The position numbers were made by a program, and so were the translations under genes. Below the pieces are notes generated by a model that did not search any database, was not told the origin of the DNA, and saw nothing but the letters and a program-made list of their open reading frames with translations. Positions 2,506-6,798 of a DNA stretch of 13,488 nucleotides are shown here, one piece after another. Every line of letters starts with the position of its first letter. Positions within the stretch are counted from its first letter, which is position 1. The stretch is from a virus (taxonomy: Duplodnaviria; Heunggongvirae; Uroviricota; Caudoviricetes). The DNA is taken from positions 1-13,488 of the IMG/VR virus record IMGVR_UViG_2534681835_000038; one strand, 5' to 3'.

Positions 2506-2943
2506 TTATTTTAAGCACTGCGTCCTGATGTATTCCTGCAGGTAGTTAACCTGCGCGGTTATCTTGTCGATTCCACCTCGGAGACGGTAATAATTGAGTT
2601 CAGCATCTGCTGTAAATCCTGGGCTTTCTCCATCGCCCATGCTGCTGGCTCCGGTCGTTGACTTTGCACAGGTGGCGGAGACTTGCAGGCGCTTACGACC
2701 AGCAGAAACATCGGCACGGAGACTTTCGATAGTCGCGTTAGCATCAGCAAGTTCCTTTGTATATCTTGCGTCGAGTTCTGCTACATCACGTTGACGCTTC
2801 TGCATATCAGCGATGATGGATGTGGCTTTATCGCGCTGCTCTTTGTAGGCGATGGCGTTATCACGGTAATGATTAACAGCCCATGACAGGCAGAGGATGA
2901 TGCAAATAACCAGAGCGGAGATAATCGCGGTTACCCTGCTCAT
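2506..2943 (-). CDS. Rz: Rz i-spanin
   Basis: Translation [36 protein letters not shown]... is near-identical at the N-terminus to lambda Rz. ATG 2941-2943 overlaps the endolysin TGA (ATGA). Start placed at MSRV, not the upstream extension in the ORF track. Confidence 0.9.
2559..2750 (-). CDS. Rz1: Rz1 o-spanin (lipoprotein) embedded in the +1 frame of Rz
   Basis: Signal peptide with lipobox VVSA|C followed by a Pro-rich mature region ([16 protein letters not shown]...), entirely inside Rz as in lambda. Confidence 0.75.
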
Positions 2944-3437
2944 TGCTGCCCCCACAAACAGACTTCACGCTCAATCTCACGACGAGTCATCAGGCCTTTC
3001 CATTGCTTACCGCCAGCGTATGTCCAGCGACGTAGCTGGTCACATGCGCCTTTGATATCGCCCTGGTTTATTTTGCGAAGAAGCGTCGATGTTCTGAAAT
3101 TACCAGCGCCCACGTTGTAAACGAACGAGTAAAGAGCGCCGCGCGTTGTTTCCGGTATATCGACTTTGATGTACGGGTTAATTTGTCTGGCGACCGTGGC
3201 AAGGTCTTTATTCAGGAGGGCTTTGCATTCTGCTTCGGTATACGTTTTACCGGGAATGATGTCTTTTCCGGTGTGTCCGTGACATACAGTCCATACGCCA
3301 ACGATATCTTCGTATGGTATGTAGCTGACACCTTCCAGGCCATCGTCACCACTCGGACCAGTGATGAGCACAGACGCTATGGCAACAGCCCCACCACCAA
3401 TAGCAGCAGCAACAGCCTTGCGTAATGATGGCGACAT
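2940..3437 (-). CDS. R: SAR endolysin (T4-lysozyme-type muramidase, phage 21 R / RrrD-like)
   Basis: N-terminal Gly/Ala-rich signal-anchor-release segment ([20 protein letters not shown]) then lysozyme core ([19 protein letters not shown]...). Closely matches the E. coli cryptic-prophage lysozymes RrrD/RrrQ as I recall them. SD AGAGGTG; start ATG overlaps the holin stop (TAATG). Confidence 0.9.
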
Positions 3438-3652
3438 TATTCACCTCTCGCAGCCTTACGCTTATCTTCTTTAATCTTGAAATAAAGGTTTGTCAGATAC
3501 GTCAGCAAGCCAAACACCAGGCTACCCAATACGCCTATTGCCACCCACTGGGATGGGGAGACTTTGTCCAGCAACTGCAGTAGCCAGTATCCCGTCCCCA
3601 CCGCTGACGTGGTGTATGACACACCTGTTGTTATTTTTTCCATCTGGTACAT
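3437..3652 (-). CDS. S: Class II holin (phage 21 S21-type pinholin), dual-start
   Basis: [71 protein letters not shown] aligns along its length with phage 21 S (MKSMDKISTG...RRKAARGE). Two in-frame Met codons (3650-3652 and 3641-3643) match the antiholin/holin dual-start arrangement. SD GGGAGA 6 nt upstream of the first ATG. The ORF-track N-terminal extension is rejected. Confidence 0.85.
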
Positions 3653-4060
3653 ACCCCGTCTCCCGTTATCCGGAAGCTGACAACAATAAAAAGCCACCAG
3701 TTAATTCCTGATGGCCCTGATGCATAAACGTCATAATACCTGACTGTTATGATTGACAATAATGATAATGTTTATATAGAAAGGTTCCCGATGTGTGTTA
3801 CATATCATTTCTCCACGGGGAATATCCCCACGCCAGCGCAGACTCTTTTACCCGTTCTCTTCTGCGCTGGCTCTTTTTTATTATGCTGCTGCATTTACCT
3901 CTGGCACCATGCTTTCTATCTCAACACAATACGTGGTACTTCTTGTAACCAATATCATAACGATTAATCGACATAGAATTTCTCCCGTGTACAGGAACAG
4001 AGTTAAAAAGCCGGAACCGGAATCAAATCACAGGATGACCATCTGCCAGTGGCAGGTCAT

Positions 4061-4087
4061 AAAAAAAAGGCCGCGCCATGCGCAGCC
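4061..4087 (-). terminator. Intrinsic terminator on the late (minus) strand between the moron and the lysis cassette (tR'-like)
   Basis: Minus strand reads GGCTGCGC-ATG-GCGCGGCC (8-bp GC-rich stem, 3-nt loop) followed by T8 (4068->4061). A second hairpin (ATGACC..TGCCA.TGGCA..GGTCAT, 4034-4060) follows immediately. Confidence 0.5.
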
Positions 4088-4272
4088 AGAACTCACAAGG
4101 AAAATGATAGAAGGAAATAACATTAGTGATGTACGCATGGCGCCTCCCGCTAAGTTCTGCAATGATCAAACAGAACTCGCTACGTGCCCTTAAAACTCGA
4201 TCATTTAGCCCCTCCAAGGAGGATTCACCATGCGGTTGATTTTTTAATAAACAGTAAACAAAAAAGTCAAGA

Positions 4273-4383
4273 ATTATTCATTCTGTTCTTTCATCATCGG
4301 CCACAGCAATACCACAATGCCGCAGACCAGAGCGCCATCAGTCAGTACCAACATTATCCTGCTGGTGAAATCCATCATCACCA
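4273..4383 (-). CDS. Possible 36-aa single-pass membrane peptide (below the ORF-track cutoff)
   Basis: MVMMDFTSRIMLVLTDGALVCGIVVLLWPMMKEQNE: one hydrophobic helix with a charged tail. No convincing Shine-Dalgarno; found by manual translation only. Confidence 0.2.
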
Positions 4384-4517
4384 TCACTAAAAGCAGGATC
4401 ACAACAGCAAGCAGACACAGTTTATAAAACAATGTTCAGAAAACGCATTCAGCATGCCTAAGGTTCTATTCCTACGAATAGCCAACTTGCAACTTAAAAT
4501 ATTATTTATGCAGCCAA

Positions 4518-5234
4518 TTAAATTCTGGTCCTTACAATATCAACCTGAAGATTCTTATCTTGTGCTGATTGATAAATGACAAACCTTTTACTACCTGCAT
4601 TGAAAGAAGTAGACAAAACCAGACAATTATCATAACGAGCAAGAACATAATACCAACCATCATTATAATTAATCATTTCATATTCTTTCTTAAACTGTGG
4701 TTTGTAATATCCTGTCAGAAATGAAAAAAGCCAGAAATATGCCACAAAAGCAATCATCACAATCTCAAAAAAATGTTTTTTTATAAATGGCTTATCATAG
4801 AAGCATGATACCGATAAAAATCGCCCATAAGATCTTATCGAAATTGTAACCGCCAGCGCAATCGCTGCTGACAGTAGCAAAAGAGGTACCTGAATCTTCT
4901 GTCTCAATATAGAAAACTCAATAATTGCCGGCACAAACAATAATTCCACAGCAAAATAAAGGCGAAATACATTTAGCTCTTGCATAGAATGTTTTCTTTT
5001 CACTGCGAAAAAGAATACAACACCAATACCCCAACCGATAAGAAATATAGCAATGACGATAACTGCAAAAAATAAACTTCTGGCAACATCATCAACACCT
5101 GCACCTACAATCCACCATGGGAAGCCGTAGTAAAAAGAAGTACCCCATCCATAGAAATAAGCACTCCCCCATCCAAGGCATCCCATGTAGGCAATAAAAA
5201 GTGAAGAACTCCTGAGCAGCGCACCATCCTTCAT
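4518..5234 (-). CDS. Polytopic inner-membrane protein of unknown function (AT-rich moron between pR' and the lysis genes)
   Basis: 238-252 aa ORF, strongly AT-rich codons, 5-6 predicted hydrophobic helices plus a roughly 50-aa hydrophilic C-terminus. Start placed at ATG 5232-5234 (MKDGALL...) preceded by GGGGTGG; longer starts at 5261 and 5276 lack an SD. No family recognised. Confidence 0.6.
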   Translation of the reverse strand: MKDGALLRSSSLFIAYMGCLGWGSAYFYGWGTSFYYGFPWWIVGAGVDDVARSLFFAVIVIAIFLIGWGIGVVFFFAVKRKHSMQELNVFRLYFAVELLFVPAIIEFSILRQKIQVPLLLLSAAIALAVTISIRSYGRFLSVSCFYDKPFIKKHFFEIVMIAFVAYFWLFSFLTGYYKPQFKKEYEMINYNDGWYYVLARYDNCLVLSTSFNAGSKRFVIYQSAQDKNLQVDIVRTRI

Positions 5235-5266
5235 AACCACCCCAATACAAGATGATAACATTGGCT

Positions 5267-5301
5267 TACAACTCATAACAAAAGCAATTCAATGCCGTCA
5301 A
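5267..5301 (-). promoter_or_regulatory. Possible sigma70 promoter for the membrane-protein gene
   Basis: Minus strand TTGACG (5296-5301), about 17-18 nt spacer, TGtTATGAG extended -10-like element (about 5270-5278), roughly 40 nt upstream of the ATG. Confidence 0.3.
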
Positions 5302-5435
5302 GAGGTTACAGGTTAAAAAAACTCTATTACATTGCAGTCAGCATGTTTACTACACAAATACAATTCAGAGCATAAAAACTACTCGGCGGCAGGTTATTGA
5401 GACTCATCAATGACATGTAAAAAACGCCCATTATT

Positions 5436-5471
5436 GGTGTCAAGTTTCCCCAAAGTTATTCAAAAAGTCAA
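5436..5471 (-). promoter_or_regulatory. pR'-like late promoter with Q-utilisation (qut) region
   Basis: Minus strand TTGACT-TTTTGAATAACTTTGGG-GAAACT-TGACACCAATAATGGG aligns almost position-for-position with lambda pR' (TTGACT-TATTGAATAAAATTGGG-TAAATT-TGACTCAACGATGGG) as I remember it. It lies 43 nt downstream of the Q stop. Confidence 0.55.
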
Positions 5472-5513
5472 TATTATGCCGTTAATATGTTGCCATCCGT
5501 GGCAATCATGGCG

Positions 5514-6137
5514 CTAACGTGTGATCGCATTCAAAATGTTGTCTGCGATTGACTCTTCCTTGTGGCATTGCACAACCAGAGCGTCATACAGCGGCTTAAC
5601 AGTGCGTGACCAGGTGGGTTGGGTAAGGTTTGGGATTAGCATCGTCACAGCGCGATATGCGGCGCTTGCTGGCATTCTTGAATAACCGACGCCTTTACAT
5701 CTTCCGCACTCTTTCTCAGCAACTATCCCCCACTGCTCTGTTTTGGCTATATCAACCGCACGGCCTGTACCGTGGCAATCTCTGCATCTTGCGCCCGGCG
5801 TAGCGGCACTACGGCAATAATCCGCATAAGCGAATGTTGCGAGCACTTGCAGTACCTTTGCCTTAGTATTTCCTTCGAGCTTTGCCACACCACGGTATTT
5901 CCCCGATACCTTGTGTGCAAATTGCATCAGATAGTTGATAGCCTTTTGTTTGTCGTTCTGGCTGAGTTCATGCTTACCGCAGAATGCAGCCATTCCGAAT
6001 CCGGCTTGTGATTGCGCCATCCCCATAGCAGCCATCACATCAGTACCAGAAAGAGAGTCAGAAGCCGTAGCCCGTGGTGAGTCGCTCATCATCGGGCTTT
6101 TTGGCGAATGAAATTTAGCTACGCTTTCGAGTCTCAT
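5514..6137 (-). CDS. Q: Late-gene antiterminator Q (lambda-type)
   Basis: 207-aa translation is essentially identical to lambda Q along its full length, including the zinc-binding CRDCHGTGR...ECGRCKGVG region. ATG overlaps the ninI stop (ATGA). Confidence 0.95.
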
Positions 6138-6798
6138 GCGCCTTCTCCCTGTACCTGAATCAATGTGAGGTTTCCGCAGAACACTGCGCCAGTATCGATA
6201 TACATCTGGTTGGCAAATTTGAGTGGTTTCACTGCTGGCGTATGACCAAAGATGAACGTGTCCGCGCCTTTGATTTCTTTCACGATCCCGTCTTGTGAGT
6301 TGCTGATTCGTTCGCGGTTCCAGATTACCTGCTGATGATCAACTGGCTTTCCAAACTCGTATTTATCACAAGGATAATCGGCGTGGCAGATGACATATTT
6401 TTTCCTTTACTCACCAGTTCGATGATTAACGGAAGTTCATCTGCTTTATGGGCAAGAGCTTTAGCCAGAATTTCTTTGTCGTAATCGAGATTAAAGAACC
6501 AGCCACCGCCATTAAGCAGCCAGTGATTGACGTTTCCACGCTCTGATAAGCCATCAATCATCATTTGCTCATGGTTTCCACGTACAGCTCTGAACCAGGG
6601 GAATGTGATTAATTCCAGGCATTCTACGTTCTCTGTACCGCGATCAACCAAATCGCCCACCGAGATAAGCAGGTCTTTTTTGGTGTCGAATCCTATCGTC
6701 TCCAGTTTTTTCATCAGGTTCGTGTAGCATCCGTGCAGATCGCCAACTACCCAAATATTTCGGTATTTGCTGCCATCAATTCTTTCGTAGATATTCAT
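6134..6798 (-). pseudogene. ninI: Ser/Thr protein phosphatase (lambda PPase / NinI) with a -1 frameshift in a homopolymer run
   Basis: Residues 1-132 ([25 protein letters not shown]...GNHEQ...[10 protein letters not shown]) match lambda phosphatase. The frame is lost at the T6 run 6398-6403 (A6 on the coding strand). The rest of the protein (YVICHADYP...[37 protein letters not shown]) is encoded intact in the -1 frame down to the TGA overlapping Q. Confidence 0.8.

Follow-up and report, generated by a model that had tools for sequence, protein, structure and literature searches.

The question raised by this locus is what is encoded by an AT-rich gene inserted between the late antiterminator gene Q and the lysis genes of a lambdoid prophage, when that gene is transcribed, and whether it serves the phage or the host bacterium. 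The gene, a member of the tfpB family, is located on the minus strand at positions 5234 to 4518 of the stretch of Caudoviricetes DNA that was analyzed as a whole (IMG/VR record IMGVR_UViG_2534681835_000038, 13,488 nt, hereafter the window). The reading we favor, to which we give an even chance of being right, is that tfpB is mobile accessory envelope cargo with a host-related role, read from a late promoter pR' that has no terminator of its own and from a second promoter close to the gene. The features on which this reading depends were the following.

5514..6137, minus strand: late antiterminator gene Q, lambda type (PF03589, E = 1e-57; 203 of 207 residues identical to lambda Q)
5436..5471, minus strand: pR'-like late promoter, by homology to lambda, with its start near 5436/5435
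5374..5395, minus strand: remnant of an 82/434-type late terminator and left edge of the cassette (AACCTGCCGCCGAGTAGTTTTT aligned with AAACCCGCTGCCGAGTGGGTTTTTTTT in phage 434)
5315..5371, minus strand: weak A+U-rich imperfect hairpin with U7 at 5321-5315 (leader folding)
5252..5301, minus strand: conserved gene-proximal block with two candidate sigma-70 promoters (consensus matches)
4518..5234, minus strand: tfpB-family gene (PF27470, phrog_1521; alternative upstream starts at 5261 and 5276)
4274..4432, minus strand: tciB-like gene (DUF3927), 52 aa with two hydrophobic stretches (PF13064, E = 3e-14)
4061..4087, minus strand: strong intrinsic terminator, the first canonical one after pR' (terminator scan; annotated at the same site in phage 434)

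Profile searches assigned the tfpB product to an existing family, where the sequence-only reading of this DNA had recognized none. It matched phrog_1521 at E = 2e-154 (residues 31-252 of the 252-aa open reading frame (ORF) on positions 1-222 of the 222-position profile), and a precomputed assignment to PF27470.1, for which the gene table gives the name 'TfpB', was found on an identical database protein and on all 104 homologues. A local Pfam-A scan returned no match because the PF27470 model is newer than the local Pfam copy. The members of the family are all labeled hypothetical. The family is small, comprising 72 clusters (50% identity, many of them fragments) at E <= 0.001 among 1.84 billion representatives, with members in Enterobacteriaceae, Pasteurellaceae, and Neisseria. 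TfpB shows the family architecture of about 240 aa, with the N-terminal aromatic/Gly-rich motif GWGSAYFYGWG..YYGFPWW and five predicted membrane helices, and homologue alignments placed the motif YYVLA..ILSK in its C-terminal beta domain. Hydropathy and AlphaFold2 located the five long helices at residues 3-36, 47-79, 89-111, 116-136, and 155-181, and the AlphaFold2 model adds a C-terminal domain of five strands and about 55 residues (two runs, the second with a deeper alignment, with a predicted local distance difference test (pLDDT) of 74.6 and a predicted template modeling score (pTM) of 0.66). This predicted topology agrees with the 5-6 helices and short soluble tail first read from the sequence. 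Lys and Arg residues in the loops numbered 10 on one side and 3 on the other, so the favored orientation of the model would have the N-terminus inside and the C-terminal SH3-like beta domain in the periplasm.

The search for remote homologues that had been proposed for this protein thus led to PF27470 and matched no protein of known mechanism. Sequence searches of the PDB with the single protein and with a profile gave nothing or chance matches to acetylcholine-receptor helices at E > 1, and a Foldseek comparison of the model with pLDDT 74.6 against BFVD and the PDB gave no match at E <= 0.001. The top Foldseek matches in the PDB were MscS channels and SH3-like domains (the C-terminal domains of HIV integrase and KorB) with template modeling (TM) scores of 0.16-0.23, which at most hint at an SH3-like tail. 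Matches at this level were not taken as evidence for an MscS-like function, and a sub-threshold NCBIfam match to CrgA (E = 0.46) was dismissed. Regarding the family name, its source is presumably the tfpB gene of the Moraxella pilin-inversion region. No Moraxella or named TfpB sequence surfaced among the homologue searches, the literature searched for a trace of the name to Moraxella or the type IV pilus held nothing usable, and no type IV pilus gene adjoined any TfpB member examined. The 'TfpB' of Acinetobacter is an unrelated PilB-like ATPase. Literature on PF27470 or the phage 434 genome contained nothing on function.

The minus-strand tfpB ORF extends from 5276 to 4518. RefSeq and the phage 434 record start the gene at ATG 5261, while alignment of 28-46 homologues supports a start at MKDGA, with ATG at 5234 and GGGGTGG just upstream, giving a protein of 238 aa; this is the gene end that the earlier reading had chosen. 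That reading had also called the gene AT-rich, and its GC content was indeed 36.3%, compared with 50.6% for Q and 50.2% for the lysis genes. The ratios of nonsynonymous to synonymous substitution rates (dN/dS) between the window allele and those of E. albertii and Escherichia sp. were 0.05 and 0.09, showing that tfpB is under strong purifying selection. The gene was intact in all 23 DNA variants seen, and the family keeps the same architecture down to 25-30% identity. Matches to the query region were present in 1300 of 5426 complete E. coli genomes.

Upstream of tfpB, alignment with lambda was nearly base-for-base from the 3' end of Q, whose product is 98% identical to that of lambda, through the -35 element of pR' (TTGACT, 5471-5466), the 17-nt spacer, and the -10 element (GAAACT, 5448-5443), and ceased shortly beyond it. 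The expected start is followed at 5435-5430 by AATAAT, a probable sigma-dependent pause element; lambda Q requires such a -10-like element for the sigma-dependent pause, and its binding site lies in the pR' spacer. The -10 element differs from that of lambda (TAAATT) by two substitutions and matches the consensus at three of six positions, and because it reads GAAACT the promoter was missed by the consensus promoter scan. An identical pR' was found in the isolated phage 2B8. The promoter proposed at 5436-5471 is therefore real by homology to lambda, and the sequence suggests that it functions as one. A lambda-family Q and a homologous pR' with -35, spacer, and pause element were thus present, while no strong terminator corresponding to tR' was located within a few hundred nucleotides of pR'. 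In lambda, pR' is separated from tR' by about 194 nt. The figure of about 200 nt that had been quoted as the distance from pR' to gene S does not hold, since the lambda coordinates are 44509 for the end of Q and 45186 for the start of S, leaving about 600 nt between pR' and S. The pR' promoter is constitutive in lambda and predicted to be so in Stx phages, and in lysogens its transcript stops at tR' (PMC7547250).

The sequence between pR' and the holin gene was compared with that of phage 434 (GenBank OL657226). A single BLAST block with 98% identity, extending from 5395 to 3950, held the leader, tfpB, tciB, a doubtful small ORF, and the terminator. In phage 434, an 82-type Q gene is followed by a strong terminator, AAACCCGCTGCCGAGTGGG plus T8, whose hairpin folds at -13.3 kcal/mol (z = -3.0), and then by the cassette. 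Its counterpart in the window, AACCTGCCGCCGAGTAG plus T5, is altered in both arms and lacks 4 nt, and on folding the remnant at 5374-5395 formed no terminator hairpin. No canonical terminator was found between 5436 and 4087 by terminator scan and folding; with the 434 terminator degraded in the lambda-Q layout, the first strong terminator therefore lies 1.35 kb past pR'. This is the terminator at 4087-4061, composed of an 8-bp stem with seven G-C pairs and a T8 tract (-17 kcal/mol, z = -2.8 against shuffles), and the earlier call of a strong minus-strand terminator here is backed by the scan, the folding, and the same-site annotation in phage 434.

Among 80 IMG/VR loci encoding an identical TfpB, 72 reached far enough upstream for the terminator to be scored, and Q type was strictly associated with its presence or loss. 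The degraded terminator accompanied a lambda-type pR' in 37 of 38 loci and the strong terminator an 82-type Q in 32 of 32; the Q82-type arrangement is as common as the lambda-Q layout. The isolated phage Lambda_2B8 matched the window layout at 335 of 336 bases; the terminator-less arrangement is therefore a trait of a phage lineage rather than an artifact of decay in the window copy. In the 434 layout, the strong upstream terminator would make tfpB Q-dependent unless the gene has its own promoter. The proposal that the gene lies between pR' and its terminator consequently held for the lambda-Q layout and failed for the Q82 layout, where a strong terminator stands directly upstream of the gene.

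Two further elements were located between the terminator remnant and tfpB. The leader hairpin (5371-5315) folds at -9.5 kcal/mol with z = -0.5, indistinguishable from shuffled sequence, and was absent from the terminator-scan list. In the gene-proximal block, the first candidate promoter combines TTGACG (5301-5296) with a poor -10, and the second, with nine of 12 matches in the scan, combines TTGTTA (5281-5276), 18 nt, and TG-TATCAT (5257-5252). The block 5301-5252 is kept in an insertion sequence (IS)-flanked copy on plasmids of enterotoxigenic E. coli (ETEC) and in part in Citrobacter rodentium, while the sequence further upstream differs. On the other side of tfpB, the tciB-like gene scored 53 bits against PF13064 (cut-off 25) and E = 2.5e-17 against phrog_1470 'TciB-like'. 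Through its homology to tciB of phage P1, which is non-essential, the gene carries the label 'inhibition of cell division or resistance to colicin'; the literature on TciB and DUF3927 contained nothing on function beyond the P1 annotation and the non-essentiality.

The description of tfpB as accessory cargo in the Q-to-S interval was borne out by its distribution: it has no counterpart in lambda and occurs in phage 434, in 2B8, and in about 80 IMG/VR prophages. The protein CPT_434_68 of phage 434 ('putative membrane protein') is 100% identical to TfpB and the 2B8 'Phage protein' 98% identical. The gene has the marks of a moron, an accessory phage transcription unit in the sense of Hendrix and colleagues, in that only a subset of closely related phages have it at this map position, and it has a base composition of 36.3% GC against about 50% in its neighbors, and is followed by its own 3' terminator at 4087-4061. 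In every IMG/VR locus extending upstream, tfpB was located 3' of a lambda- or 82-type Q, and in loci long enough on both sides the order was Q (lambda or 82 type), tfpB, tciB, optional nanS-p, and holin. The tciB gene was present 3' of tfpB in nearly all prophage copies with a long enough locus and missing from chromosomal and plasmid singletons. One short contig (L003, JAIITD010000172.1; 3 kb, 'MAG: Veillonella sp.') encodes Q, TfpB, and TciB proteins 100% identical to the E. coli prophage versions and is almost certainly a mis-binned E. coli contig.

More distant relatives were situated in different contexts. A 68%-identical relative has a third Q type, a DNA methylase, and two tRNA genes upstream and lpxR, pmrD, and nanS-p downstream, a layout that we take to be typical of the stx slot of Stx phages, with the cargo between the tRNA genes and nanS-p. 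In Citrobacter rodentium, a 66% relative adjoins an lpxR pseudogene, and the pairing of tfpB with genes for lipid A modification is recurrent. In the prophages with the third Q type (L105-L107, positions 4001-6504), lpxR, encoding a lipid A deacylase, follows tfpB on the opposite strand and pmrD is present in one of three loci; in phage 434, lpxR is situated just upstream of the Q gene. On ETEC plasmids, a 59% relative is divergent from eltAB, which encodes the heat-labile toxin (LT), and lies between IS elements; this copy may have been left over from a phage late region beside LT-I. On the plasmid contigs L089-L092 (about 2987-5714), tfpB was about 870 bp from eltAB, and estB (STb) was a few kilobases away. 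A 57% relative adjoins iroB/iroC and a bor homologue, while in Pasteurellaceae and Neisseria the relative is a lone gene amid housekeeping genes, at different sites.

The only TfpB member with any experimental data is STM1630 (SL1344_1560) of Salmonella Typhimurium, a protein of 238 aa that is 46% identical to TfpB and has the same Pfam family and architecture; the 46% relative was identified as STM1630 because the published deletion primer encodes NSSMLLAYLGGLGWG. The gene is a horizontally acquired, AT-rich chromosomal singleton beside sseJ and steB, without tciB and outside any late operon. Its mapped promoter, which is its own and is disrupted by two single-nucleotide polymorphisms in ST313 strains (PMC6785131), is located about 215 nt upstream in sequence non-homologous to the window. 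STM1630 carries an H-NS site and is expressed in medium inducing Salmonella pathogenicity island 2 (SPI-2) and in macrophages, mutants were reported as attenuated in calves and chickens, and deletion in strain 4/74 increased intramacrophage replication, with the gene described as having no known function (PMC6785131). Another study lists it alongside the SPI-2-type regulon (PMC2639726), and a hypermotility of the mutant was reported and then re-examined in a follow-up study.

In the reading we favor, the cassette of tfpB, tciB, and terminator would move as a unit in the hypervariable Q-to-lysis interval, and the 82/434-type terminator would have been destroyed at the recombination junction in the lambda-Q layout. 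Transcripts from pR' would run through a leader of about 200 nt, tfpB, and tciB and stop at 4061-4087 without Q, yielding an mRNA of about 1.35 kb in place of a short 6S-type leader RNA; with Q present, the same transcript would continue into the lysis genes. Should the pR' variant behave like that of lambda, lambda-Q lysogens would therefore make tfpB-tciB mRNA without Q, and the arrangement of the two layouts suggests such read-through in the lambda-Q layout and not in that of 434. Since relatives are maintained and expressed at sites remote from any Q or pR', tfpB probably has a promoter close to the gene as well. As for its role, TfpB most likely changes an envelope or membrane property of the bacterium that is relevant in the animal host; we consider functions in lytic growth or phage defense less likely. 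The pattern favored by the contexts of the family is that of a self-sufficient membrane protein spread by mobile elements together with virulence and envelope-modifying cargo.

Several points weigh against this reading. Regarding transcription, the -10 of pR' may be weaker than that of lambda, the leader hairpin with its U7 could be a partial terminator or pause site that ends some transcripts, and Rho or H-NS could block read-through across a 200-nt untranslated AT-rich leader. The AT-rich tfpB gene may itself be silenced by H-NS, by analogy with its Salmonella homologue. The candidate proximal promoters are consensus-level matches, and promoter-like matches were no commoner in this sequence than in shuffled sequence. 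The identical TfpB behind a strong terminator in phage 434 implies that expression from pR' in the lysogen is not essential to its function. Regarding the role, TfpB resembled no protein of known mechanism in sequence or structure searches, the identity of STM1630 to TfpB is just 46%, and the STM1630 phenotypes were mild and partly not reproduced, without a growth defect (PMC6785131).

An extended version of the favored reading, which we put forward only tentatively, is that the loss of tR' turned pR' into a lysogenic-conversion promoter in a whole lineage of lambda-Q-type prophages of enterohaemorrhagic E. coli (EHEC), and that TfpB founds a new class of mobile inner-membrane factors altering the envelope in colonization or excluding phages through a novel mechanism. 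In that case, tfpB and tciB would be expressed continuously, and such factors would spread with toxin, siderophore, and lipopolysaccharide (LPS)-modifying genes among animal-associated Proteobacteria. The slot, the moron concept, and the gene as a hypothetical protein were already known; what is added is the assignment to a family, the connection with STM1630 and with the toxin- and siderophore-adjacent copies, and the association between Q type and terminator. The question matters since Shiga toxin and other conversion genes ride in the lambdoid Q-to-S interval, and the wiring of cargo to pR' and tR' determines whether healthy lysogens produce it or production awaits induction. The 100%-identical protein behind an intact terminator (434) and a destroyed one (window and 2B8) provides a natural test pair. 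The TfpB family is small, confined to animal-associated bacteria, and found repeatedly beside LT toxin, iro/bor, lpxR/pmrD, sseJ/steB, and in nleA/nleG prophages, and its mechanism would annotate a gene of about one quarter of complete E. coli genomes as well as STM1630.

A role in phage defense, in which TfpB, perhaps with TciB, would block the entry of superinfecting DNA or trigger abortive infection, had been suggested for this gene and appears unlikely to us. The model of an inner-membrane protein with a probable periplasmic domain, carried by a prophage at a position that makes expression in the lysogen plausible, is consistent with it, as is the label of the neighboring tciB, which refers to cell division and colicin resistance. 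Exclusion factors are frequent among morons of comparable size and position, as with P22 SieA, HK97 gp15, and T4 Imm. However, tfpB, tciB, and the small ORF matched none of 5027 PADLOC models even at E <= 1, and the TfpB model had no fold match to known exclusion proteins in BFVD or the PDB. The lone relatives amid housekeeping genes in Pasteurellaceae and Neisseria, the relatives adjoining toxin, siderophore, and LPS-modification cargo, and the response of STM1630 to intracellular infection conditions rather than to phage likewise leave the suggested exclusion or abortive-infection role unsupported.

We judge it equally improbable that tfpB and tciB are purely late, Q-dependent genes, silent in the lysogen and expressed only once the prophage is induced, when they would serve lytic development or the lysing cell, perhaps by preparing the membrane for holin triggering or preventing superinfection late in growth. 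The sense orientation of tfpB in the late operon agrees with this account, as do the Q-dependence conferred by the strong upstream terminator in the 434 layout and a weakened pR' -10 and hairpin/U7 that may limit basal read-through. Late expression also characterizes other cargo of the interval, namely nanS-p. For stx2, it has been described as well (PMC7547250). On the other hand, homologues function without Q or pR' nearby, at least one of them with its own promoter, and the lone chromosomal copies do not fit a late gene. The terminator-less layout is widespread and found in an isolated phage, P1 tciB is non-essential, and lambda has no tfpB, which is therefore dispensable for the lytic cycle.

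That tfpB is a non-functional relic or a mis-called ORF in a decaying prophage is very improbable: the prophage is defective, cut by an IS3-family element, deleted in nanS-p, and represented in the window without structural genes, and TfpB has no known function, but the dN/dS of 0.05-0.09 in itself excludes a dead gene, and the allele is intact in 23 of 23 variants, 100% identical in phage 434, and part of a family conserved to 25-30% identity with the same architecture.

Downstream of tciB, the window contains the following additional features.

4023..4217, minus strand: doubtful small ORF overlapping the terminator (434 counterpart CPT_434_70 'putative membrane protein')
3865..3974, minus strand: remnant of nanS-p, a SASA-family sialate esterase gene (BLAST against 434)
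3690..3718, minus strand: second terminator-like hairpin, directly upstream of the holin gene (terminator scan)
2506..3652, minus strand: lysis cassette (Pfam PF04971, PF00959, PF03245; RefSeq annotation)
3652-3437, minus strand: class II (S21-type) holin of the lysis cassette
3437-2940, minus strand: lysozyme of the lysis cassette
2955-2506, minus strand: Rz-family lysis protein (ORF list; RefSeq start 2943)

The frame of the small ORF differs from that in phage 434 through a 1-nt indel, and the C-terminal halves are unrelated. Only the downstream half of CPT_434_70 (IIFLVSSGC...FFMTCHWQMVIL) is conserved, in the window in the frame starting MRTSL, and the ORF at 4023-4217 had no family match in PHROG, PADLOC, or NCBIfam. 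The nanS-p remnant consists of the first codons and the last 85 nt or so of a gene that is intact in phage 434 and many related prophages, with an internal deletion of about 1.75 kb. On the plus strand, RefSeq annotates a 132-aa hypothetical protein (WP_012578864.1) at 3795-4193, spanning the terminator and the esterase remnant, which is probably a spurious call. Phage 434 is likewise annotated with a terminator upstream of its holin gene.

The window derives from a defective lambdoid prophage of pathogenic E. coli. Over the query region, it matches the chromosome of E. coli O111:H8 strain 8E at 100% identity and those of E. coli O26:H11 11368, O103, and other EHEC strains at 99.9%. The prophage is inserted in a DUF1175 gene adjoining yfaA and cut by an IS3-family element, and nleA and an nleG-family effector gene are located within a few kilobases. 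Positions 1-636 of the window hold a partial IS3-family transposase ORF (210 aa) from the IS1203 copy that truncates the prophage, and at 11797-13488 the integrase gene is immediately adjacent to a DUF1175 ORF that is fused at the attachment site. The minus-strand gene order was HNH endonuclease, NinG, NinI phosphatase, Q, tfpB, the DUF3927 gene, terminator, class II holin, lysozyme, and Rz, and no structural genes were present in the window. A hexanucleotide microsatellite, (AAATAG) x 14.8 with 98% matches and perfect-looking, is located at 8133-8221, flanked by the HNH endonuclease gene and by two AT-rich ORFs on the plus strand; it accounts for the FLFLFL/ISISIS pseudo-ORFs of the ORF list and could be a phase-variable or slippage-prone tract. 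The two neighboring ORFs, at 8456-9442 and 9481-10308 in the nin region (328 and 275 aa, 33-35% GC), are oriented opposite to the phage genes and labeled hypothetical in RefSeq. They match phrog_14900 and phrog_13344, and both match phrog_9230 (590 aa), as would be expected of one protein that had been split or fused; neither had an NCBIfam or PADLOC match. They are a candidate for a second cargo unit in this effector-carrying EHEC prophage.

When compared to known systems, the closest counterpart is phage 434, which shares with the window the succession of tfpB, tciB (CPT_434_69 'TciB'), and small ORF/terminator, at 98% over 1.45 kb, and the position of this cassette between Q and the holin gene. 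Phage 434 differs in its 82-type Q, strong upstream terminator, and intact nanS-p, whereas the window has a lambda-type Q and pR', a destroyed upstream terminator, and a deleted esterase. In relation to lambda and its pR', 6S RNA, and tR', the window shares Q (98%), a near-identical -35 and spacer, and a pause-like element; the homology ends just after the -10, and neither tR' nor a 6S-type leader is present. The lambdoid Q-to-S cargo genes stx1/stx2 and nanS-p occupy the same slot as tfpB, after Q and pR' and before the lysis genes, and nmpC in DLP12 and LT-II are further cargo of this interval. TfpB is a predicted integral membrane protein, in contrast to the secreted toxin or enzyme encoded by stx-type cargo. 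Such cargo is located after tR' and depends mainly on Q for expression (PMC7547250), while the window has no effective terminator between pR' and tfpB. TfpB has no sequence or fold similarity to the classical lambdoid morons and exclusion proteins lambda Bor and Lom, HK97 gp15, and P22 SieA, but as a genetic element tfpB resembles them in being a small accessory envelope gene of deviant composition with a 3' terminator and a patchy presence.

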